This document shows, piece by piece, positions 5,531 through 32,259 of a DNA stretch of 64,000 nucleotides (its first letter is position 1; the number at the start of each line of letters is the position of its first letter). Origin of the DNA: Escherichia virus TH42; the sequence record MT446413.1, one strand, 5' to 3'. The notes beneath the pieces were generated by a model. It was not told the DNA's origin, did not search any database, and saw nothing but the letters and a program-made list of their open reading frames with translations. Both the position numbers and the translations under genes were made by a program.

Positions 5531-5737
5531 TCAATAAAACGAACGTATTTCTTCCCACACATCATCTTGAAGACTTTTAAAACCCTGTAAAGCTGATTGG
5601 GTTCTCATGATAAAATCTTCAGAATGTTTATTGCGGTCAAGCATACTGACAAACTTGTCATAGCGGTTAATCTTCCACCGTAACTTTAAGTAGTCAGACT
5701 CGAGCTTTCTCAGCTTCTGTCGCTCAGTTACTGTCAT
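5531..5737 (-). CDS. hypothetical protein
   Basis: Start placed at internal ATG (MTVTERQKLRKLE...) preceded by AGGTGA SD; the longer track ORF (to 5836) would overlap the upstream gene by >100 nt. Confidence 0.3.
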   Translation of the reverse strand: MTVTERQKLRKLESDYLKLRWKINRYDKFVSMLDRNKHSEDFIMRTQSALQGFKSLQDDVWEEIRSFY

Positions 5738-6155
5738 CCTGATCACCTGCCAGATACGCTGTCCAGTCGCCAGATTCAACCAGAACATCTTGTTCTTCGT
5801 CGATATGATAAATCCATGCTTCCACAGTTTCACCACTATCCAGCACTACTGGAATTAGTGTACGATTGTAGAAAGTGTATGGATTGTCTTTACCACGATA
5901 ACCTTCCAGACCGTCATACGGACCTTCCAAACCAGCTTGAGTTGTTTCAAATACTTCCACACGAACAGGCTTGCCATTGCTGTCGTGCTCCAGAGACACA
6001 CTTGGGAAGTATGCTGTGCAATACTGATACAGGTTACAGTTGTTCACTGTCCAACCCTCACCAATAGACACACCACCGGCACGAGCATTGATAGCGTGGT
6101 TGTGTTGACCTTTTCTCAAGCTGCCGTAAGTTGCTACTAATACTTTATCAGACAT
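5724..6155 (-). CDS. gamma-glutamyl cyclotransferase-like (GGCT/AIG2 fold) protein
   Basis: 143 aa; N-terminal ATYGSL motif and size typical of GGCT family. Confidence 0.5.
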   Translation of the reverse strand: MSDKVLVATYGSLRKGQHNHAINARAGGVSIGEGWTVNNCNLYQYCTAYFPSVSLEHDSNGKPVRVEVFETTQAGLEGPYDGLEGYRGKDNPYTFYNRTLIPVVLDSGETVEAWIYHIDEEQDVLVESGDWTAYLAGDQDDSN

Positions 6156-6665: not shown

Positions 6666-7913
6666 TTACAGAGTTACTGCCACTTCACTACCTTCAACAG
6701 TTACAGACTCTAACTTACGAGGGTTGTGGACTTGTTGCGGATGAACCGGAACGTTCCAGCCACTGCGGTAGAAGTTACGACCATCGCAGAACAGAATGAC
6801 ATTGGCAGACATTGCATTAGGTTGCAGGTTGTTATGAACATGACGAATATCTGCAATCCAGTAACCACGAGACAACACATAACCAGTAGGTGCATTACGG
6901 ATTGTCTGAGTATTCATCTGACCTTCCAGTTGCATTTCTTCAGGAACTACATCCACTGAATCAACCGGCTGTGCGACTTGGCCTTCCAGTGCGAAGTTTT
7001 CATCATCAGCACTTTCACTGTCAGCAACCAATTCACCATCTCCATCTTCAATTGGAGCTTCAACAGGAGTCTGGTAAACCACTTTATACTGAGGAGTATA
7101 GAGAGGGTTTTGAGCTTTAACAAACTCAAGGATGTTGTGACGGTAGGTATCCAGAGTTGTACCAGTCAGGCCCGGTGCTGTATTAACTTCCAGTACCCAT
7201 GCTTCTCGACCTTTGGTAATGATATCAACTGCACCAAAATCCAGACCCATCGATTCAACGGCCTTCACTGCGTTGATCAGAGATGTATCGTTCGGAACAT
7301 CCGTAAAAGAGCTTGAGTAAACCCAACCAGTGTGATGGTTACGAACATCTTCACGATAGTTAGGGTCTTCACGATAACCATTACGACGAATTTTCTTCTG
7401 AACATAGGTGATTGCACCTTTGAACACATGGACACGCCATTCACGACGTGGGCCTTGAATACCTTTGGTGTACAGTTCAGCTTGACCAACTGAATCACGA
7501 GGCTCAACAACAATAATACCCGAACCAGAGTGACCAGTCAGTTCATGACGTTCATACACAATGTTGCCAGAGTTTGACCACTCCTGAGCAATCTCTTGAA
7601 CATCTGTATACTCAACAGTTTTAACACCTGCTTGGTCCATCACGCTGAAAGCACGACGTTTGTTCGCTGCCATGTGTAAGGCTGCGGTACGGTTAAGAAC
7701 AGTTGCAGAACCAAAGAAGGATTCAGGATAGCGGCGGTTTCCGTAGTTCACAACCACATCACCCTCACGAGAACGCCAGCGACTGTTCTCAGAAAGAAGA
7801 CCCATTACGTTAGCGTTGATACGTTCATCACGGATAGTATCACTAATGGCAGTTACCAGAGCGTTAACAGAATCAGAAGGGCCATACGGAAGAACACGGA
7901 TACGAGTAGTCAT
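6666..7913 (-). CDS. ATP-grasp family ligase
   Basis: 415 aa; ATP-grasp C-terminal signature DFGAVDIITKGREAWVLEVNTAPGL, upstream GSGIIVVE; acidic C-terminal extension. Confidence 0.65.
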   Translation of the reverse strand: MTTRIRVLPYGPSDSVNALVTAISDTIRDERINANVMGLLSENSRWRSREGDVVVNYGNRRYPESFFGSATVLNRTAALHMAANKRRAFSVMDQAGVKTVEYTDVQEIAQEWSNSGNIVYERHELTGHSGSGIIVVEPRDSVGQAELYTKGIQGPRREWRVHVFKGAITYVQKKIRRNGYREDPNYREDVRNHHTGWVYSSSFTDVPNDTSLINAVKAVESMGLDFGAVDIITKGREAWVLEVNTAPGLTGTTLDTYRHNILEFVKAQNPLYTPQYKVVYQTPVEAPIEDGDGELVADSESADDENFALEGQVAQPVDSVDVVPEEMQLEGQMNTQTIRNAPTGYVLSRGYWIADIRHVHNNLQPNAMSANVILFCDGRNFYRSGWNVPVHPQQVHNPRKLESVTVEGSEVAVTL

Positions 7914-7915
7914 TT

Positions 7916-8146
7916 TTAGATACCTTTTAGTTTAAGAATTTCGTTACGACAGGATTGAATTTTAACTTCGATTTCCCAATACTTGGCGAACATCTCGTCT
8001 TCTTGGTCATCGCTTGGTGAATCAATTAGGTTAAAAGCAAACGGATACAGCTTTCGCTGCTCCGTTACCAGTTGTTGAAGTCGGAGTTGTTGATACTCCA
8101 GCATTGTCAGGTGAGGCTTAGCTCCCTTGCTTGACATGAGGCTCAA
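7916..8146 (-). CDS. hypothetical protein
   Basis: 76 aa ORF in operon context. Confidence 0.35.
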   Translation of the reverse strand: MSLMSSKGAKPHLTMLEYQQLRLQQLVTEQRKLYPFAFNLIDSPSDDQEDEMFAKYWEIEVKIQSCRNEILKLKGI

Positions 8147-8351
8147 CTTTAATCCCCTTCAATTTCACATAGTCAGCCAACACGTTGTTGATAACGGTTG
8201 GGAAAGGGATTTCAACTGGAGAGTTAACCAGTCCCCCAATACCTTCTTGCATCCATTTCTGAATAGCTCGAAGGTTATCACATCCTGTGCTTGTCATTGG
8301 GATACGTCGAGTGGTTACAACGTTATCCAACATCAATTTACGAACTTCCAT
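8118..8351 (-). CDS. hypothetical protein
   Basis: 77 aa ORF in operon context. Confidence 0.35.
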   Translation of the reverse strand: MEVRKLMLDNVVTTRRIPMTSTGCDNLRAIQKWMQEGIGGLVNSPVEIPFPTVINNVLADYVKLKGIKVEPHVKQGS

Positions 8352-8362
8352 AACTTCACCTC

Positions 8363-10366
8363 TTAATGTTTACCTTTACAGTAATCTGAATTACAGATCA
8401 CCCTGTTTTCTTTGTTTAGTGAGCAAACTTCTGCATCACGCCACGGAATTTGTTTATAACAGACTGCACAAAACCCAATTGAAGTCCAGAGGGCTTTTGT
8501 GAACTCAGCTGTTCGTTGTCCGTCGTAACTGACAACTGTTTTTCGGAGAGTTGTTTGCTTTTCTGGAAATGTTTCCGCTTTCTCAGCGGGCACCTCCTTT
8601 GGGGCATTCTTTGGACCATAAACAGAGATGGCATAGGTATCGCCACCACGTTTTTCCAAGTAAGAGTTTGGAACATCAGACAATTCAATGTCACCAGAAC
8701 GTTTAGCTGAGCTGACCATTACAATCATCCGGCTAAGCATACGCTGATCAACACGAACTGCTACTTCAGGGCGACGTGGGTTGGTTGTGTCAACTGCTTT
8801 AGTCCAAATGTAACCTTCAGACAATGTAGTGTTAGTCACTTTGTCTTTGATCTCTTTGGCACAGACATAACAAATATCTTCACCACGAAGTTTACTCATT
8901 TCGTTATCAAACTCGAAATCAGTTTTAACATTGCCACATACAGCACAGACACCCAAAGGAATGTCTTCATCTTCTTCAGACGGTTTGGACAATGCTTCGA
9001 AACAGGCCGGATGCCAATATGCTTGGTAAGCGAACACAGCTTTCTTAGCATCTTTCCATTCAATGTGCTTGTCACAACCGCCACAATCACCATGAGAATG
9101 TGATTCCCAGAACTTACGGGTGACTTCCACACCATTCTTAGTGATGAAGGAGTCTTCTAAATCAAAAGGGATATCATCATCAAAATCAGCGGTGGTGCTT
9201 TGAGGCTCCTTATCGGTAGCATCAACAAACAGCCCTGAAGTGAGTACGAGGCGAATCATACTGTCCACTTCGGAGATACAAGCAACCGTCCCGCGATACA
9301 CCACCTTTGGGTTTTCGAGAGCCTTCAAGTATTCACTCTTGGCTACATTATGAACATCACCCTCAACATACTCTTGAGCAGCGTCATCATAAATATAACC
9401 AACCATCTTACCACGGTCAGTGTTGTTGTAAGCGTGGAACTCGTGAGGGATGATATCCACACGACCGTCACGACGATACGGAAGACCACGATCGGCAGCC
9501 AGTTTATTCTGATCTTCAATCGCTTTACGACGACGAATGTCTCCGCTTGTCACGCCGGGCTTGTCGTCTTTGTTTCCGTAAATGTCGCTTGTGCTGCTGC
9601 TTGATTTGTTTGTCTGTTGGTTCTGATACAGAGAGGAGTTCGAGTAATAGCCGCCCCAGCGACTCGTTACCGTAAAAACCGGAAGCTTGTGCTCCACCTC
9701 TTGAGTCAGAGTCATACGGTTGCCAGACAAATCAAAGATGTATTCAGTTCCCACTTTACACTCAAAGTGATCATTGATACGGTTCTTGTGTGACTTGGAA
9801 CGATTAAGAATCCACATCAACATATCTTCTTCAGAAGCACCAAACCAATCCAGACCACAACGGGCCAGATGGAAAGGACGTTCATCATTACGAATGATAT
9901 GCAGAGTATTGTCTTTGGCGTCATGCCAGATTAAAGTGAACGCACCATCCAACTTCTGGATAGTCTCTGCTGCACCAATGGTGTTGATTGAATGACAGAT
10001 GTTTTCGCTATCAACTTCGAAATTCTTATGATCTGGTAATAGTTCCTGATCTAACAGTGTACCATTATGAACCAGAGTAATGTCACCATGAGAGAAAGGG
10101 TGAGCATTTCGAGCATTGACAGCACCACGTGTGGCATGTCGGCTATGACCAACAATCCACGATGGAGGAACTACATAGTTCGTAAGCCCCTTAGTAAGAT
10201 TCGTGTACCCTGTCTGGAGCATAAAGGCATAGGAAGGAAGTGCTTCTTTATAAGAAAATACTTTTTCATCACCTTTACGCTGACCGAACACACCAGTTGA
10301 GTGCTGACCACGGAAGACTCCAGCATACAGAAGCTGGTTGAATACGTCTAAGTCTGTGGAGGTCAT
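8363..10366 (-). CDS. class II (Ntn) glutamine amidotransferase domain protein with C-terminal multi-Cys zinc-ribbon region; true start probably AUU at 10396
   Basis: N-terminal ~250 aa align to PurF/GlmS-type GATase (RGQHSTGV, VGHSRHATRGAVNARNAHPF, ITLVHNGTL); C-terminal half has several CxxC pairs; nucleophile Cys lies upstream of first ATG. Confidence 0.7.
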   Translation of the reverse strand: MTSTDLDVFNQLLYAGVFRGQHSTGVFGQRKGDEKVFSYKEALPSYAFMLQTGYTNLTKGLTNYVVPPSWIVGHSRHATRGAVNARNAHPFSHGDITLVHNGTLLDQELLPDHKNFEVDSENICHSINTIGAAETIQKLDGAFTLIWHDAKDNTLHIIRNDERPFHLARCGLDWFGASEEDMLMWILNRSKSHKNRINDHFECKVGTEYIFDLSGNRMTLTQEVEHKLPVFTVTSRWGGYYSNSSLYQNQQTNKSSSSTSDIYGNKDDKPGVTSGDIRRRKAIEDQNKLAADRGLPYRRDGRVDIIPHEFHAYNNTDRGKMVGYIYDDAAQEYVEGDVHNVAKSEYLKALENPKVVYRGTVACISEVDSMIRLVLTSGLFVDATDKEPQSTTADFDDDIPFDLEDSFITKNGVEVTRKFWESHSHGDCGGCDKHIEWKDAKKAVFAYQAYWHPACFEALSKPSEEDEDIPLGVCAVCGNVKTDFEFDNEMSKLRGEDICYVCAKEIKDKVTNTTLSEGYIWTKAVDTTNPRRPEVAVRVDQRMLSRMIVMVSSAKRSGDIELSDVPNSYLEKRGGDTYAISVYGPKNAPKEVPAEKAETFPEKQTTLRKTVVSYDGQRTAEFTKALWTSIGFCAVCYKQIPWRDAEVCSLNKENRVICNSDYCKGKH

Positions 10367-10473
10367 GTTGCCCCCAGCTAATACGATACCACAAATTTTC
10401 TAATCCACCTGAAGGGTAAACCCTTTCATCTAATTAACCTTTAAATGCGCCCTTTATCAGAGCGCCCATTGTG

Positions 10474-11574
10474 TTACAGCAGTCGTTCTAATTGCATTTC
10501 CAGATGGTCTGGAATGTAACCAGTGACGTTATCATCACTGCTACCTGATTCACGCATCAGAGCAAACATGTGACGAATTTCACGAACCGTTGCGATTCGA
10601 GTGTTTTCAATCTGAGGGGTGTAATAGGTCAGGATCTCTTCGTAAACAGAGTTGGCATTACCACGTACATATCCCAAGAAACCGTAGAAGTCGCCCATAT
10701 CACGCAAGTTGATAAGGATTTCACCATCAGGTCCAGTCTGCTGTACACGAACACGACCAACCAGAGTAACAGAATGTTCACGACAGAACAGAATATCACG
10801 AGCCAAACGATAACCGCCAGTCAGGTCATCATCATTAGGTGTGTAGTCCAGAGGCAGATACTGAATCATAGGAGCGAAGCGTAGCTCATTCAGTTTCTCA
10901 ACATATGCTTCATTATCCAAATCTGCATACTCAACAGCCAGTTTCTTGAGAACCAAGAAGCGGTTGACCAGATTAAGGAGTTGGCTTTTCTTCCACTTTG
11001 GCTCTGAGATACGAAATTCAACAGAACCAAACTGAGCCAGAGGTAATAGGTTAAGGGAGGTGTACTTGTCCCAGCTATTAACAAGAGTATTGAAGAAGGC
11101 TTCACCATCTCGGTTGAACGCTGCGGAAGCATTCATTACCTGTGCTTGAACAACAGCAAAGGCAGGACAGAAGTTGCTACGATAGCGATGGTATCCAGAA
11201 CATTTGAACATCATCTTTTCATAGAACGTCCATCCAAGAATTACTTTCTTCAGGATGTTACTATCAGCGTCACGCATATCCATATGAACGTGAGTAGAGC
11301 AGCGCCAAGTCCCTTCAGCTTCAGAGTCTTGTACTGCTTCACTCAGATTGTTAATAGCACTAAGCAATTCTACACCGTTGTAAGGCCGTGCACAAACCAT
11401 CTCACAGCCATCACGAAGTGAACCATCTTCAGTACAAACCCAAAGGTCTGCATCAATTTCAGAGGTTCCTTCAACTTCCAGCTCGATGCCAATACCACAC
11501 TGAAAAGCGATGCTTGGGTGCGGCTCAGCCAGACGAGCATTACGGTATCCAAAAACTTGTGCTACGGTTGTCAT
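10474..11574 (-). CDS. amidoligase (Amidoligase_2-type, glutamine-synthetase-like fold)
   Basis: 366 aa; GIGIELEVEG, EDGSLRDGCEMV, CSTHVHMD motifs. Confidence 0.7.
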   Translation of the reverse strand: MTTVAQVFGYRNARLAEPHPSIAFQCGIGIELEVEGTSEIDADLWVCTEDGSLRDGCEMVCARPYNGVELLSAINNLSEAVQDSEAEGTWRCSTHVHMDMRDADSNILKKVILGWTFYEKMMFKCSGYHRYRSNFCPAFAVVQAQVMNASAAFNRDGEAFFNTLVNSWDKYTSLNLLPLAQFGSVEFRISEPKWKKSQLLNLVNRFLVLKKLAVEYADLDNEAYVEKLNELRFAPMIQYLPLDYTPNDDDLTGGYRLARDILFCREHSVTLVGRVRVQQTGPDGEILINLRDMGDFYGFLGYVRGNANSVYEEILTYYTPQIENTRIATVREIRHMFALMRESGSSDDNVTGYIPDHLEMQLERLL

Positions 11575-12206: not shown

Positions 12207-13013
12207 TTAGATAATCTGGAGTTTAGAGGAGAATTTATCCGCTTCTTTAACATCGTTGCTATTGATGATGTTGTGAAGCTTTTCGATAGGCAGACGGGAG
12301 TGCAGAGACATGAGAATTTCCATATCACAGCCCTGAATAACCTTATCAACTTGATCGTAAACAAACTTACGAGTGGACTGTTCACCAATCCAGAAGTTCG
12401 ACAGAGAACGATATTCAATACCGTAATCTTTATAACGAATAGCAGATGCCTTGCCGTAAAGTTCTTTACGACGAGTGTCCTTATCCATAATTACTGCTGG
12501 AAGTGACAGGAAGTAATCACACAGAACACCCAGCATCATCTGAGTCTGTCGAGTTACTTCCAAAGACCCTGCAACACCGAGGTGTACGTGACCGCCAGCA
12601 GTACGCAGACCTTTGTCTGTCGCTACCGGAGATGGGTTTTTCTGACCAGTGAAGGCGTTGAAATCAGGAGTACAGCCAAACACAAAGGCTGATGGATGGA
12701 ATGATTGCAGCTCTTCAGAAGTGTACACATGAGAACTAATCCCAAGTGCAGCTTCCATACCACGTTCATTAAGAACTTTGTTGGTCAGATCAATACCACG
12801 CTGGATGTTATCATCAAACGCTTCGAACCCTTTCTGTGGGTTAATATCGAATTCAGCCAGAACGTTGTCTTCTTGAAGACGAACATCAGGGGCCAGATCG
12901 ATTTTGTTATCTTTAGAACAGCCCAGCTTACCAGCCACAGAGGTGATAACACCAGAAGCAGTACGAACAAACATTTCAGGGTCAGAACCAATAAGGAAAG
13001 CACGCTTAGTCAT
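12207..13013 (-). CDS. putative COOH-NH2 ligase-type amidoligase
   Basis: Start at internal ATG with GGAG SD (track ORF begins at GTG 13058); MTKRAFLIGSDPEMFV and GGHVHLG resemble GCS2/COOH-NH2 ligase family; tentative. Confidence 0.45.
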   Translation of the reverse strand: MTKRAFLIGSDPEMFVRTASGVITSVAGKLGCSKDNKIDLAPDVRLQEDNVLAEFDINPQKGFEAFDDNIQRGIDLTNKVLNERGMEAALGISSHVYTSEELQSFHPSAFVFGCTPDFNAFTGQKNPSPVATDKGLRTAGGHVHLGVAGSLEVTRQTQMMLGVLCDYFLSLPAVIMDKDTRRKELYGKASAIRYKDYGIEYRSLSNFWIGEQSTRKFVYDQVDKVIQGCDMEILMSLHSRLPIEKLHNIINSNDVKEADKFSSKLQII

Positions 13014-13956
13014 TGTAATACTCCACAAGTTCATCAAAAAGGGAAACAACACGGGCACCAGCTTCTTCTGGTGTCATTGAGGAAGGTACTGCTTGCATCA
13101 AGCGTTCAATAAAACTGCGAACAGTAATTCTGTCCATACGCTGATCTAATACTTCACGTTTATGGCCTGCACACATTGACCAGAGACGCAACCACTCACT
13201 CATACTTTCGTAATAGTCAGGGTCTTGGTCACGACGACGAGCCATACGGCGGAGAACTCCGTCATTATGGTTTCGTACATAACCATCTCTGTTATCGTCA
13301 ATACCAAATACATTCTGAACCCATACGTTTTCAGAAAATTCATCAGTTGAACAGACCAGTGGCAAGAATGCGATTGCACTCATATCGCCAGTAAAATAGG
13401 TCGCTGCTGATTCATCATCAGTGTCTACATCATTTGAATAAGACCAACGACCAAAGAAGTTACGACTCAAACCGGCTAAACGTAAAGCTAAGCTGATTCG
13501 TTGTCGCTTGAGTAACTCTTCCTTGTCTTGAACGCCTTCCTGAAGGAACTCCATTCCCATAAAATCTCCATCCAGATAACTCCGGAGGGTCATTAATCCA
13601 GTAAACACCTTGTCTGCTGGGTGGTCTCGAAGGTTCACGGCAACTGAGTTCACCGAAGTGACAGAGAACATGTTTTTATAGCAAGACATTGAGTTAAAAA
13701 TGTCTGTTGCTTCAACTAAAGCTCTTTCGATATCTTTAGCTGGTACGCCATAAAAATTGTGAGGCCAGAAGTTAATAACTCCAATTTCTGAAGTTCTATC
13801 ACGAAGGCTTGAGAGATTGATACTGTCGCCATTAATGTCTGTAACAGAATACATATGCTGACAGTTGAAAGTACCAAAACAAGCTCGCCCTCTGAACACT
13901 GACTCACCAAAGTCCCCTGATGGTGTTACCGGAGCAGTCGATGCGGAGATTGACAT
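13006..13956 (-). CDS. hypothetical protein (amidoligase cluster member)
   Basis: 316 aa ORF, co-oriented, overlaps neighbours by a few nt. Confidence 0.45.
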   Translation of the reverse strand: MSISASTAPVTPSGDFGESVFRGRACFGTFNCQHMYSVTDINGDSINLSSLRDRTSEIGVINFWPHNFYGVPAKDIERALVEATDIFNSMSCYKNMFSVTSVNSVAVNLRDHPADKVFTGLMTLRSYLDGDFMGMEFLQEGVQDKEELLKRQRISLALRLAGLSRNFFGRWSYSNDVDTDDESAATYFTGDMSAIAFLPLVCSTDEFSENVWVQNVFGIDDNRDGYVRNHNDGVLRRMARRRDQDPDYYESMSEWLRLWSMCAGHKREVLDQRMDRITVRSFIERLMQAVPSSMTPEEAGARVVSLFDELVEYYND

Positions 13957-27973: not shown

Positions 27974-28315
27974 TTACGGATTGGTGCAAGTGCCGTTACC
28001 GGATGATATTTCGTTCATCGACTCATCGAACAACGTCATACTAGACCGCATCATGTGATCAATAGTAATTTGTTTGCCTGTAGCTTCGTTAACAAGCATC
28101 GCATATTTGCTATCAACAACCTTGTTGTCGTAGTCATTCAGGTCAATCAATACTACCTTGCTGGACTTCTTGCCAGTGTCGTAATTTTCCATAAGGTAGG
28201 TACATTGCAGGCCATCGAGATTAGCCTCATTGAATACGGCAGCATAAGACACGGAAGAAACAGCGAACAAGGCAGCACATACAGCTAATTTAATTTTCAT
28301 AATCCAATCCTCCAA
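27974..28315 (-). CDS. secreted/periplasmic small protein
   Basis: 113 aa; signal-peptide-like MKIKLAVCAALFAVSSVSYAAVF (internal ATG probable start); terminator downstream. Confidence 0.45.
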   Translation of the reverse strand: MEDWIMKIKLAVCAALFAVSSVSYAAVFNEANLDGLQCTYLMENYDTGKKSSKVVLIDLNDYDNKVVDSKYAMLVNEATGKQITIDHMMRSSMTLFDESMNEISSGNGTCTNP

Positions 28316-28427
28316 TACGATTGGGGCAATCCTTAAAAAGAACGTGCAACATAAGAAATCATGTCATAGGTAAATAACATGATACAGAAAGCAATCAGGC
28401 AATGCAAAAAGTATTTATGAATCACCA

Positions 28428-28676
28428 TTAACGATCCTCGACGGTTAACAGTTCTTCCAGTGATAGACCGGATTTAACCAGCAAATCACGATATTCGTTA
28501 GCATCCATCGGATCAAGGCCGGACAACCGGGCAATAGTCATGCGTGCATGTGCTGAAGACAAGGAAGCCAAAGCACGGATAGGAATCAGTACAAGCCCAT
28601 ATTTACCGCTGATAACCAAATCACCATGCTGGATGCACATATGGGAGTTTATTACGGTTGCAAATGATTCGTTCAC
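28428..28676 (-). CDS. hypothetical protein
   Basis: 82 aa ORF. Confidence 0.35.
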   Translation of the reverse strand: MNESFATVINSHMCIQHGDLVISGKYGLVLIPIRALASLSSAHARMTIARLSGLDPMDANEYRDLLVKSGLSLEELLTVEDR

Positions 28677-29536
28677 TGGATAGCCTCACAATTAGCAAAG
28701 TTAATAAAGGTTGTATAAACTGCTACACCGTCATTGTAAGCAGTGGTAGCGAGTACAGTTTCACTAACATCACCATAGCTAACGAGATTAGTCACGAACT
28801 GTAATTTCTCTTTCTCAACCTTCTGATATAGAGAGTATGTAACCATGTCATGATCACTATCAGCACGCTTTAAATTAATAACCGACTGAATGCCTGATTT
28901 CTCACTTAACGGGGTAAGAGTGACACGCACATCTTTTACGGTTACAGAGTTAAAATGCACCTTCCAGAATGAATCATTACCATCACTGCCAACGTCACGG
29001 CAAGCCATATCAGGAGCATTCTTAAACGTGCTAACAAAGGATTGAAGACCTGTAGAAAGAGAGTCTTTTGCCTGCACATTGGTAGCGATAGCACTAACAC
29101 TGATAGCTGCAACCAGCGCATAACTTGCAAGGTTGACAGACTTCATAATCTTACTTGCAATAGAAGGCTTACTATCTTTCTTCTTCTTGTTCTGAACAGC
29201 TTCAACCATAGCAGACAAGCGGGATAATACTGCGTTAACATCGCGGCAAGATTCAGGCCAATCATTCTGAGTCCAACTATCTAAATTAGCCTGAATGTAA
29301 CAGTTGATAGCATCTTGCATATCTGTAAAACCATTCTCTTTCATTGACTGCTCATCTTCACACTGTAAGGCGTTCGCAGCGGAATCTATGATAAGACAAG
29401 CCAGAATGACAGAGTTTTTAAAGCTGGTGCGAGCTTGCTGGTTATCCATCCATTGAGAAGGCACACCAACGGAAAGACCTAACAGAGAAAGTACATCATT
29501 TGCCTGATTCAAGTATTTAATTGCTAACTTTGACAT
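28673..29536 (-). CDS. hypothetical protein
   Basis: Start at internal ATG (MSKLAIKYLNQ...) with AAGGA SD; track ORF begins at TTG 29569. Confidence 0.45.
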   Translation of the reverse strand: MSKLAIKYLNQANDVLSLLGLSVGVPSQWMDNQQARTSFKNSVILACLIIDSAANALQCEDEQSMKENGFTDMQDAINCYIQANLDSWTQNDWPESCRDVNAVLSRLSAMVEAVQNKKKKDSKPSIASKIMKSVNLASYALVAAISVSAIATNVQAKDSLSTGLQSFVSTFKNAPDMACRDVGSDGNDSFWKVHFNSVTVKDVRVTLTPLSEKSGIQSVINLKRADSDHDMVTYSLYQKVEKEKLQFVTNLVSYGDVSETVLATTAYNDGVAVYTTFINFANCEAIQ

Positions 29537-29824
29537 TTCATTAATCCTTTCGGTTGATGTGAACTGCAAACTACAGTCGCAACTATATATTAAAGGAAAA
29601 ACATGTCAACCACTTATTTTCAAACTATTTCATAACTCATTGAATCTAAAAGGAATTTAATTTACTAAACTTTCTTACTCAGAGGTACAGCTTACTAACA
29701 GAATGTTACTTTATAACGCTTATAGAACGGGTAGCAGATCAACGGTAACGACAGATGGGTAGAACGTGCCGCATAGGTTAGCCAATGGGTAAGAAGCCTA
29801 ACGAGGAAGGGGAAACGGGTAGGA

Positions 29825-29835
29825 TATAATGTAAG
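29825..29835 (+). promoter_or_regulatory. TATAAT / TAATGTA-type promoter element in control region
   Basis: ggaTATAATGTAAG: TATAAT 29825-29830 overlapping TAATGTAAG 29827-29835. Confidence 0.3.
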
Positions 29836-30059
29836 TTAGTTACAGGTAACAGGTCAGACCATGCGGGAGTTAATTACCAGTCAAATAATTTACTCAAACA
29901 ACAAAAGAAAAAGACCAACAGCACGCTGAAAAAGAAAAAGATTAAAAGAAAGGATTAACATAATCACTTAAGTAAACAATAACCAGTCTAAACATACATA
30001 CATCAATAATCCACTCATAAATAATCACATAAGTTATTACATTCAAACTATGGGGAGTG

Positions 30060-30082
30060 TGTGGGTTGATATAATTGCATGG
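30060..30082 (+). promoter_or_regulatory. extended -10 promoter (rightward)
   Basis: TGaTATAAT at 30067-30075. Confidence 0.4.
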
Positions 30083-30544
30083 TGTTACCATGTGGGTATC
30101 ATTAATGTTCTTACTATTAATACCGGTTAGTTATAGTCTTCTATTAGTATGCCTGTACAGTACATCAGAGTCTAGCCTTTCATCCCTTCTCAACATGAGT
30201 AAGAGAAATACGGGTAGGAAATCACTGGTTAGATATACATGGGTAGATTCGCATTACTAGATAATGCTCATGGGTAAATAATGCATGTCTAATATCAATG
30301 GGTAGGGTATTTATGGGTAGGTGTGCCACTGAACGCAGATAGGGCAAGGCTTAGAGCTTAAAGGCTGATTGATTTCCTAAAGGCGATTGCATTCCCTATA
30401 ACCCTTTTTTAAATGAGGACTCCCCCTTTTACCAAAACACGCTCGGAGGGGCTAGGTCCACTCGGTCAAATCAGAATTTTAAACCCTTATATATAACTAT
30501 ATGCCCCAACGTTAGTTGTGGATTTAAGAGTGAGGAACAACTTT

Positions 30545-30709
30545 ATGTGGAAATTGAAGATGATTATCAGGCAGATTAAATGTAATCACGAGTACTACCC
30601 AATCCGGATATCGAGAGGTGATGAACGGTTACATGCTTATTACAAGAGTACATGGAGGTGTGCAGATTGTGGTAAGGTTAAGAATAGTAAATGGGTGGAT
30701 AGGCCTTAA
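30545..30709 (+). CDS. small zinc-ribbon protein
   Basis: Start at ATG (MWKLKMIIRQIKCNHEYY...RCADCGKVKNS) with GAGG SD; track ORF begins at GTG 30518. Confidence 0.35.
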   Translation: MWKLKMIIRQIKCNHEYYPIRISRGDERLHAYYKSTWRCADCGKVKNSKWVDRP

Positions 30710-30831
30710 CATGACATGGCCTTTATGAAGTCCCCTTTACATCAGCGTACATGGGTTCATACATGGGTGGGCCTTTAGATGAGTAAGCCTTTATGGGTTG
30801 ATCACTCTCGTTTATCAGAGGAGATATAAAA

Positions 30832-31080
30832 ATGATTCTAGACTTTTTATCAGAGCTGCTTCCTTACTTCCGCACTGAAAGATGTGCATTTGTATTTGAT
30901 GAAGGGGAGGAGGTATTGAGTTGTTTGGGTAGATTAGTAGACCTAGATGACGATGAAGATTTTGATGCTACGATGGATATTAGTTCATTGGGCTGGTTGT
31001 ACATGAGATGCTTTGTAACCTACAAGGCTGAGACGTTTAAAGACTATCGTTATAACACGGAAGGAGAGAATGATGAATAA
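30832..31080 (+). CDS. acidic hypothetical protein
   Basis: 82 aa ORF; DLDDDEDFD tract. Confidence 0.4.
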   Translation: MILDFLSELLPYFRTERCAFVFDEGEEVLSCLGRLVDLDDDEDFDATMDISSLGWLYMRCFVTYKAETFKDYRYNTEGENDE

Positions 31081-31726
31081 TATGACAGGAACTAATACAC
31101 TGAATGCAATCTACGAGAACATGGGATGTAAAGGCGAGGTTGTTTACAATGGTAATCTCCGTCCCTTATCAGAGGACACTCTCTATCTGAATCGTGTTCA
31201 TGAAACCACTGGAGGTAAATCCCGAGTTGAGATGGTAAAACAATTGGCTCATGGTTCTGTGTATGGTCATGCTCCTTCAACCCGTGAACTATGGGAAAGT
31301 TTGATTCCTCGTACAGAAGCTAAAGATGTGAAAGATTATTTTACTGTAGCAAAAGAAGTTAAACGCAAGTGTCCATCCAATTTAGAAGTTGTTCCGTATG
31401 TATCTGACAAACATGCACACCTACCGGATTATGCCCGTGAGATGATTGAGATGATAGAAGAAGCTGAGTATGAAGCTCTGAATAATTATTTAAATTCGAA
31501 AGATCAGTGGTCACGTAATGTAGTAATTGATGAAGAAGGTAATGAAGTAGTTACGTGGGTACATGCTAGTGAACAAGCTCTGGACCCCGAGCTTGAAGAA
31601 TACAAAAAATTTTTGGCGTCCTCTTCTTTTGATGTAGAGAATGACAAATCTGTTCCAGTGACTTGGGAAGGTGAAACTGTAGCTCTCCAGACTTTGTTCA
31701 ACCTACACGTAGGTAATGTAGATTAA
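31070..31726 (+). CDS. hypothetical protein
   Basis: 218 aa ORF; intrinsic terminator follows. Confidence 0.5.
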   Translation: MMNNMTGTNTLNAIYENMGCKGEVVYNGNLRPLSEDTLYLNRVHETTGGKSRVEMVKQLAHGSVYGHAPSTRELWESLIPRTEAKDVKDYFTVAKEVKRKCPSNLEVVPYVSDKHAHLPDYAREMIEMIEEAEYEALNNYLNSKDQWSRNVVIDEEGNEVVTWVHASEQALDPELEEYKKFLASSSFDVENDKSVPVTWEGETVALQTLFNLHVGNVD

Positions 31727-31737
31727 TAAAAGGTGTT

Positions 31738-31762
31738 GCCTCCTCTAGTGGGAGGCTTTTTG
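31738..31762 (+). terminator. intrinsic terminator
   Basis: GCCUCC-UCUAGUG-GGAGGC then UUUUUGUU. Confidence 0.5.
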
Positions 31763-31771
31763 TTATAACGA

Positions 31772-31780
31772 TAATGTAGA
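31772..31780 (+). promoter_or_regulatory. candidate phage-sigma-dependent promoter motif (TAATGTAGA)
   Basis: Matches TAATGTATA-like motif just upstream of 31792 gene start. Confidence 0.3.
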
Positions 31781-31791
31781 AGGAGTATAAG

Positions 31792-32259
31792 ATGTTTGGA
31801 GAAAAAGGAGAACTCACGCCTGCACAGGTAGCTGAGGTTACAGGAAGATTACCCGGTGTAACTGATGAATTGGAAAACCGTGGTATGGAGCCAAGCACAG
31901 GGAAGTTCCAAAAGGGAAATAAGTTCGGACGACCCAAAGGTAGTAGAGGTAAGTTGACACAGCTCATGTTGGACCGAGTTGCTTCAAGTCATCTGTCCCC
32001 TGATGAAGTGTTGATTCAAATTTATGAAGATCCAAATATTCCACCTGATCTTAGATTCAAGGCTGCAAGTAAAGTTGCAGATCTGGTATATCCGAAGGCA
32101 GCTTCTGTTGAGATTAAGATTGAGGAAGAGAATGTAATTAATGAAGATTCATTGAACGCACAAATCAAGGACTTCTTGGCTGGAGCATTAGGTGCAGATG
32201 TGCTACCTCCAGAGGACTCTGAGGACGCTGAAAAGGAGGAGGAAGCGGACGAGAGTTAA
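31792..32259 (+). CDS. candidate terminase small subunit
   Basis: 155 aa; immediately upstream of terminase large subunit; acidic C-terminus; assignment by position only. Confidence 0.4.
   Translation: MFGEKGELTPAQVAEVTGRLPGVTDELENRGMEPSTGKFQKGNKFGRPKGSRGKLTQLMLDRVASSHLSPDEVLIQIYEDPNIPPDLRFKAASKVADLVYPKAASVEIKIEEENVINEDSLNAQIKDFLAGALGADVLPPEDSEDAEKEEEADES

Follow-up and report, generated by a model that had tools for sequence, protein, structure and literature searches.

The start of a class II (Ntn-type) glutamine amidotransferase gene was examined in a 64,000-nucleotide stretch of Escherichia virus TH42 (sequence record MT446413.1; the whole stretch is hereafter called the window), a phiEco32-like podophage of the Gordonclarkvirinae. 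In this gene, which lies on the minus strand, AUU occupies the initiator position, there is no alternative start and the N-terminal segment is coding. Across the family, AUU or AUC in this position (together AUY) co-occurs with a Shine-Dalgarno (SD) sequence and a short hairpin abutting it. Alignment with homologues makes it very probable that translation starts at the AUU at 10396-10394, and the distribution of the hairpin tips the balance modestly towards a functional role for it in initiation.

The amidotransferase gene and its initiation codon

The features of the gene and its start, in window coordinates, are:

8363-10396, minus strand: class II (Ntn-type) glutamine amidotransferase-domain coding sequence (CDS), 677 codons from ATT, stop codon 8365-8363
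10394-10396, minus strand: putative initiation codon ATT (AUU), aligned with the ATG of homologues; the annotated start in phiEco32, the SU10 RefSeq record and Bas88
10391-10393, minus strand: TGT, codon of the predicted catalytic N-terminal Cys (residue 1 after Met removal), C2 being invariant in the alignment
10405-10410, minus strand: SD sequence AGGTGG, 8 nt before ATT, with the spacer ATTAGAAA
10402-10400, minus strand: in-frame stop codon TAG, which closes a mini-ORF (ORF, open reading frame)
10364-10366, minus strand: internal ATG of Met11, the start in mechanical ORF finders and several GenBank records; not conserved

The minus strand of the start region reads CAGGTGGAT TAG AAA ATT TGT GGT ATC GTA TTA GCT GGG GGC AAC ATG and continues with ACC, the stretch before the TAG being also written CTTCAGGTGGAT. 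An earlier reading made from the sequence alone (the sequence-only reading) had placed TAG, ATT, TGT, ATG and an AGGTGG at 8 nt in this frame, and its frame and coordinates proved exact when the minus strand was re-read. As it had also stated, the in-frame TAG and the Cys codon are separated by AAA and ATT alone, without ATG, GTG or TTG, and therefore no canonical start is able to place Cys at position 2. The mechanical ORF list held the 667-aa ATG version as the sole entry for the amidotransferase. A sequencing error as the source of the ATT was ruled out because the same ATT and leader occur in many independent genomes: both are present in each Gordonclarkvirinae genome examined, and the 66-nt leader is matched at at least 97% identity by all 96 Gordonclarkvirinae records.

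Homologues with a canonical start place the initiator at this ATT. The position of the window ATT-TGT-GG is occupied by ATG-TGT-GG in Proteus phage P59, Escherichia ECO319P1, Salmonella SeKF_80, Aeromonas LAh_9 and Pseudoalteromonas RIO-1, and an ATG-TGY start was found in 62 of the 76 IMG/VR family loci with an alignment reaching the N-terminus. MCG[IL]V forms the N-terminus of about 60 ATG-starting homologues, and position 2 of the PHROG 4736 profile aligns with position 2 of the protein (E=2e-184; protein 2-515 on profile 2-498). In KBNP1711, Paul and phiEco32 most differences from the window in codons 2-45 fall on third positions; in the comparison with Paul, 33 differences were found, 21 of them at third positions, giving 17 synonymous and 9 nonsynonymous codon changes. 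Since these codons change mostly at third positions despite having no canonical start, the N-terminal segment is taken to be translated and, judged by this substitution pattern, the 10-114 codons cut from other annotations evolve as coding sequence. The proposal of the sequence-only reading that an AUU start opens a 677-codon ORF is thus supported at the level of sequence by the ATG-Cys homologues, the coding-type changes at the N-terminus and the profile alignment. Mass spectrometry identified the SU10 orthologue among the early proteins, from 9 peptides; the text of that study reports no N-terminal peptide (PMC4281155).

The residues expected of the enzyme class are consistent with this start. 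Class II amidotransferases use the free alpha-amino group of Cys1, and therefore removal of Met must expose the Cys. The TGT directly follows ATT, the sole possible initiator, so that Cys would be the first residue after the initiator Met provided AUU initiates. C2, R29-G30, R86, T89, N111-G112 and D129 are invariant in the alignment, with R86, T89, N111-G112 and D129 aligning with GlmS R73, T76, N98-G99 and D123 (1xff). The glutamine-binding and oxyanion residues of the class are therefore in place, and the family hidden Markov model scored above threshold, with Pfam GATase_6 at 55.2 bits (cut-off 27) and GATase_7 at 25.3 (cut-off 25) among matches to GATase_6/7/4. This agrees with the class II amidotransferase start that had been read from the letters, while the degenerate, Cys-independent homologue that the same reading had offered as grounds for refutation was not what the alignment gave, the glutamine-site residues being intact. 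The window gene also has the sequence marks of an AUU-initiated gene: it lacks a canonical start that could replace the ATT, its SD (AGGTGG) is functionally spaced at 8 nt, and the ATT is kept by its orthologues in each Gordonclarkvirinae genome examined and in Aeromonas phage BUCT695.

The other start to be weighed is the ATG at 10366-10364 (Met11), which would give a 667-aa protein without the Cys nucleophile and make the amidotransferase domain a non-catalytic relic. This ATG is annotated by ORF finders and in several GenBank records, and a weak GGGGG lies just 5' of it. However, KBNP1711, Paul and phiEco32 carry a Leu codon instead of it, and their next canonical starts lie 45 (GTG) and 114 (ATG) codons downstream. 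At the protein level the Cys and the 10 codons before this ATG are retained in different families, no glutamine-site residue is lost, and the strong SD is placed for ATT and not for the ATG. A start at Met11 is accordingly very improbable; the sequence-only reading had noted that it would delete the Cys nucleophile.

A hairpin beside the Shine-Dalgarno sequence in AUU and AUC lineages

Among the sampled IMG/VR loci of the family and cultured phages, ATT or ATC was found in the initiator position in about 10 lineages, scattered on a neighbour-joining tree of the domain. Beyond the window lineage the carriers are IMG/VR L034, L037, L042, L055, L070 and L074 (ATT) and L047 (ATC), and the cultured Pseudomonas phage O4 and Klebsiella phage Klyazma (both ATC). 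All AUY carriers read ATY-TGY-GG with no in-frame canonical start upstream, and in L074 a TAA stands directly before the ATT.

A perfect hairpin of 5-7 bp, with its 3' end at -14 to -16 and 0-2 nt from a GGAGG-type SD, was present in 14/14 scanned ATT/ATC loci. The leaders of O4 and Klyazma, which lie outside the scanned 14 and were judged by eye, have the same hairpin-SD layout. An 8-nt SD spacer beginning with AT was found in 10 of 11 ATT/ATC leaders. The stems are unrelated between lineages (GAACCT/AGGTTC, AGACTAA/TTAGTCT, AATGC/GCATT, CCTAGA/TCTAGG and TGTGTTG/CAACACA). A perfect stem of at least 5 bp ending at -12 to -17 occurred in 3 of 67 ATG loci, which is about what chance predicts (approximately 3% per locus). 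Counted by lineage, the hairpin was present in 10/10 AUY lineages compared to 3/63 ATG lineages (Fisher p=5e-10). No other gene in the window has the hairpin-SD-ATY layout, and of two CTG matches, one is followed by a canonical start after 1 codon and the other after 8 codons. The hairpin-SD-AUY pattern was not found described in the literature searched.

The same gene can be followed between start types within Paundecimvirus. Phage O4 has hairpin-GGAGG-8nt-ATC (L095 240-303), and TC6 and PP21 have GGAGGTG-4nt-TTG and no hairpin (L216/L217 240-303), the first 20 residues of their proteins being identical to those of O4. Judged from these leaders, weak starts seem to have been chosen repeatedly for the amidotransferase gene, with leaders exchanged or remodelled.

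Upstream frames were seen to end within two of the hairpins. In Klyazma the stop codon of an HNH nuclease gene lies in the loop of the SD-abutting hairpin (L096 270-303), and in L047 the stop of a 136-codon upstream ORF lies in the 5' arm of the hairpin (1470-1503).

The conserved leader and possible modes of initiation

The features of the window leader are:

10412-10425, minus strand: hairpin AAGGG-TTTA-CCCTT, predicted at -4.6 kcal/mol, 3' end at -16 from ATT and 1 nt before the SD
10400-10429, minus strand: in-frame mini-ORF ATG AAA GGG TTT ACC CTT CAG GTG GAT TAG (MKGFTLQVD*), 9 codons, ATG at 10429-10427
10397-10446, minus strand: nucleotide-conserved leader block, -50 to -1, from comparison with KBNP1711, Paul, phiEco32 and SU7

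Both the hairpin and the SD lie within the mini-ORF, whose stop is 3 nt from the ATT and whose ATG follows an AAGG at a distance of 8 nt. The sequence-only reading had mentioned neither the mini-ORF nor the hairpin, which may route initiation or boost it. From -50 to -1 the leader has 0-1 differences from KBNP1711, Paul, phiEco32 and SU7, while the next 132 coding nt have 14-33. A closely similar leader was found in BUCT695 (Grimontviridae; L006 340-410), being about 89% identical to window 10391-10450, although the amidotransferase domain of that phage is 55-57% identical to that of the window and groups with the ATG-starting Grimontviridae. A leader shared by BUCT695 and the Gordonclarkvirinae suggests, at the level of sequence, either horizontal transfer or extreme constraint. 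The BUCT695 cassette differs by two substitutions (GGGTTaACCC and AGGcGG) and retains the ATG and TAG of the mini-ORF. Both substitutions are nonsynonymous in the mini-ORF, and one lies in the hairpin loop with the stem untouched. Because the stem is spared and the other nucleotides are frozen while both changes alter the peptide, the constraint appears to act on RNA and not on peptide. A 15-nt anchor search of IMG/VR for a cassette of the window type found it next to the gene only in the five known Gordonclarkvirinae contigs, the other matches being due to chance.

The arrangement can be read as follows. The hairpin (10425-10412) abuts the strong SD AGGTGG, which is followed by an 8-nt A/U-rich spacer and the AUU. 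By keeping the SD single-stranded and placed, or by docking on the 30S platform, the hairpin may give a set, probably low, output from a poor codon. Initiator tRNA would read AUU 10396-10394 as fMet, and Met removal would then expose the Cys encoded by TGT 10393-10391 as the N-terminal nucleophile. In the window lineage, ribosomes that end the 9-codon mini-ORF 3 nt upstream may also re-initiate. The function of the hairpin, the strength of expression, the sensitivity to IF3 and the use of the mini-ORF are inferred here from sequence patterns and from known AUU genes, infC and pcnB being the analogies for IF3-sensitive, low-level expression.

The gene infC of E. coli is like the window gene in combining AUU with a strong SD (GGAGGA in infC, AGGTGG in the window), and at both the upstream frame stops 3 nt before AUU, the thrS-infC junction being TAA GGT ATT and that of the window TAG AAA ATT. 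The two differ in that the upstream frame of infC is the full gene thrS and that of the window a 9-codon mini-ORF, and infC has no SD-abutting hairpin. Autoregulation by IF3 is established for infC; for the window gene an effect of IF3 may be supposed by analogy. In reporters, AUU output was six- to eight-fold below that of AUG or GUG and approximately two-fold better when an upstream cistron ended 3 nt before; at the thrS-infC junction upstream translation doubled AUU use, with reinitiation contributing about as much as de novo initiation (PMC3592434). The E. coli gene pcnB shares with the window an AUU and a strong SD (GAGGTG), but its spacer is 4 nt long and it lacks both an upstream stop and a hairpin at the SD. 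The pcnB AUU is reported as a probable brake on the expression of a protein that does harm when overproduced (Binns and Masters 2002, as cited in PMC3592434).

Since TAG-AAA-ATT copies the thrS-infC junction, re-initiation after the mini-ORF is a plausible lineage-specific addition to initiation at the hairpin and SD. A stronger form of this proposal, which would refine rather than replace it, is that AUU is used mainly by termination-reinitiation: the mini-ORF (10429-10400) would be translated, the hairpin melted and the ribosome stopped at UAG, to restart 3 nt on while held by the SD inside the mini-ORF, with de novo 30S binding minor. The mini-ORF is preceded by an AAGG of its own, 8 nt from the ATG, ends in TAG-AAA-ATT in the geometry at which upstream translation doubled the use of the infC AUU (PMC3592434), and keeps its ATG and TAG in BUCT695. 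L034, L042 and L074 likewise have an ORF terminating at -7 to -5, and upstream genes stop inside the hairpin in L047 and Klyazma. However, in L037, L055, L070 and O4 no plausible ORF upstream terminates close to the start codon, and because of these four AUY lineages coupling is not a shared feature; the hairpin and SD are. The mini-ORF can moreover be judged by just two substitutions, those in BUCT695, both nonsynonymous. A promoter like the BUCT695 motif AAATGTAATAT, firing 6-8 nt downstream by the rule of PMC4281155, would also put the mini-ORF ATG at or before the 5' end of the mRNA. Predominant reinitiation is therefore considered possible in the window lineage but rather unlikely. A stop codon at -7 to -5 was also tried as a universal sign of coupling and ruled out, no ORF with a start ending there in four lineages.

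A further proposal is that the conserved leader and hairpin serve a role other than initiation, as a 5' stabilising stem-loop, an RNase site, a promoter or other DNA signal or a recombination boundary, with an indirect link to AUY. An mRNA that is translated poorly might have to be shielded from RNases, and such a need would favour this proposal. The conserved block runs to -50, past the hairpin, and overlaps an AATGTA gp36-sigma-like core in relatives. The BUCT695 protein goes with the ATG-starting Grimontviridae and its leader with the Gordonclarkvirinae, a discord which suggests that the leader moved by recombination. The phiEco32 gp36-sigma promoter core is reported as tAATGTAtA (PMC4281155), and TTTAAATGTAAA-like motifs lie about 20-35 nt upstream of the ATG, just before the SD, in L005, L007, L008, L018, L020 and L021-L023. 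In the window, however, this position (10431-10445) is taken by a degenerate TTTAAAGGTTAAT, and neither TTTAAAGGTTAATTAG, tried as a repeated phage promoter from the upstream part of the leader, nor the gp36-type TAATGTATA was enriched in the window, so that the promoter-like motif is not a repeated one there. About 10 lineages whose stems are unrelated keep the hairpin at a fixed distance from the SD and start (-14 to -16, with the 8-nt spacer), which points to a function connected with the ribosome-binding site, and ATG lineages of the same gene have no such hairpin. A role unconnected with initiation would explain neither this geometry nor the exclusive link with AUY and is improbable.

Several observations nevertheless weigh against a role of the hairpin in initiation. 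The SDs of AUY lineages are not clearly stronger than those of ATG lineages. The window hairpin is small at -4.6 kcal/mol, and the overall folding of the leader does not exceed that of shuffled sequence (z=-1.2). In the predicted minimum-energy fold, GGUUUACC is paired with GGUGGAUU (10403-10422); this pairing would bury the SD and cannot coexist with the AAGGG/CCCUU hairpin. Because both BUCT695 substitutions disrupt this pairing, the SD-sequestering fold is given low weight and is probably not functional, although a switch is conceivable. The conservation of the leader across phage families could in part reflect recombination or a DNA-level signal. Finally, infC and pcnB both have a strong SD and no SD-abutting hairpin, and the hairpin is therefore not a general requirement for AUU initiation.

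Processing of a longer product was also considered. In some class II amidotransferases, for example Bacillus subtilis PurF and GltB, a propeptide is removed to expose the Cys. If the TAG at 10402-10400 were read through, the product would begin MKGFTLQVD-X-KI-CGIV..., and a 12-residue propeptide would have to be removed autocatalytically, as in these enzymes. The mini-ORF shares the reading frame of the enzyme, and read-through could take place in amber-suppressor hosts. However, the enzyme does not have the canonical start upstream of Cys that marks the propeptide class: the in-frame TAG stands two codons before Cys, and the AUY lineages lack an in-frame ATG, GTG or TTG upstream, with L074 carrying TAA directly before its ATT. 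A tRNA search of the window found none, and hence no suppressor is encoded there. The two BUCT695 substitutions, nonsynonymous among otherwise frozen nucleotides, also argue against a constrained propeptide. Read-through is very improbable.

Initiation at the AUU, perhaps aided by the adjoining hairpin, is therefore preferred. Its extended form, which is put forward tentatively and is rather less likely to hold than a hairpin role as such, is that hairpin, strong SD, 8-nt spacer and AUU or AUC make up a dedicated, transferable initiation module, to which phages would have turned repeatedly for expressing this Cys-nucleophile enzyme from a start other than AUG. The SD-abutting hairpin might then be mechanistically required, for example through platform docking, coaxial stacking or IF3-tunable initiation, and would be an undescribed enhancer or regulator of non-canonical starts.

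Protein domains, genome context and public records

The window enzyme resembles GlmS, PurF and AsnB in its Met-Cys-Gly-Ile-Val start and its glutamine-site residues. The family profile matched the GlmS glutaminase domain 1xff at E=3e-8; a single-sequence search of the N-terminal domain against the PDB gave no match. The C-terminal two thirds (about 450 aa) is rich in CxxC, with several CxxC...CxxC motifs, and unlike those enzymes, which start with ATG, the window protein has no SIS, PRTase or AsnB acceptor domain. Residues 230-677 (8363-9700) match the phage family PHROG 4736 only, apart from a weak LIM-like Pfam match. No SIS domain was found in the amidotransferase by Pfam at E<=0.1, and the C-terminal tandem SIS domains that define GlmS are absent. 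Because the protein has GATase_6 but no SIS, the database name 'L-glutamine-D-fructose-6-phosphate aminotransferase' is, on its domain content, a misnomer.

Over this region the window shares 97-99% identity with Escherichia phages TH34, TH43, Bas88 and ECBP2; for about 90 further members the figure is 75-90%. The amidotransferase belongs to the phiEco32-type amidoligase / ATP-grasp / amidotransferase cluster, all four co-located partner genes of which were found by Pfam. The neighbouring features are:

12207-13058: COOH-NH2 ligase type 2 (Pfam match, phiEco32-type cluster)
10474-11574, minus strand: upstream gene Amidoligase_2 (Pfam match, phiEco32-type cluster)
10447-10465, minus strand: predicted stem-loop GCGCUCU-GAUAA-AGGGCGC, directly after the amidoligase stop; terminator-like, without a U-tract
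8118-8351, minus strand: DUF7195, in the same phiEco32-type cluster
6666-7913: RimK-like ATP-grasp (Pfam match, phiEco32-type cluster)
5724-6155: gamma-glutamyl cyclotransferase-like (Pfam match, phiEco32-type cluster)

In relatives the 10447-10465 stem-loop reads GTGCCTC...GGGGCAC, both arms having changed with pairing retained. It was not called in the terminator scan, and a scan of 10200-10800 called neither a sigma-70 promoter nor an intrinsic terminator. Two small overlapping ORFs (76 aa, and the 77 aa DUF7195) lie at 7916-8351 on the minus strand between the amidotransferase and the ATP-grasp and are kept in all relatives. The sign of the GC skew flips near 30 kb (window approximately 28000-32000), which would fit a change from leftward to rightward transcription units.

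The AUU start call itself is not new, because records of phiEco32, SU10 and Bas88 already carry it, and AUU initiation is of a known kind. The CDS of phiEco32 phi32_83 was annotated from ATT in 2008 (GenBank EU330206, ABY52884.1; L011 2551-4581, ATT 2551-2553), and those of the SU10 RefSeq record and Bas88 likewise. These orthologues have the same gene, leader and ATT as the window, with no biological difference. No discussion of or experiment on the ATT start was found in the searchable literature, the phiEco32 genome paper (2008) lying outside that search. Truncated records lacking the Cys were found for SU7, KBNP1711, Paul and BUCT695 and, more distantly, for O4 and Klyazma. The SU7 record starts at Met11, that of KBNP1711 at a GTG 45 codons in, that of Paul at an ATG 114 codons in and that of BUCT695 at an internal ATG, and the O4 RefSeq CDS is short by 37 codons. 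In a spread sample of about 40 annotated Gordonclarkvirinae records, eight have a feature over the leader and start.

For this widespread phage gene, many public records are truncated, by 10-114 codons among those examined. As such records lack the catalytic Cys, anyone studying function or structure from them would be working with an inactive enzyme. Verified AUU or AUC starts are very rare, infC and pcnB being the only ones cited in the E. coli literature consulted. Here such codons occupy the initiator position in about 10 natural lineages of one family, all with one simple RNA layout in common and with close relatives starting at ATG or TTG as built-in controls. If the hairpin matters, these phages would offer a compact natural system for the study of mRNA structure beside the SD and of start-codon discrimination, and a tuning part for low expression.

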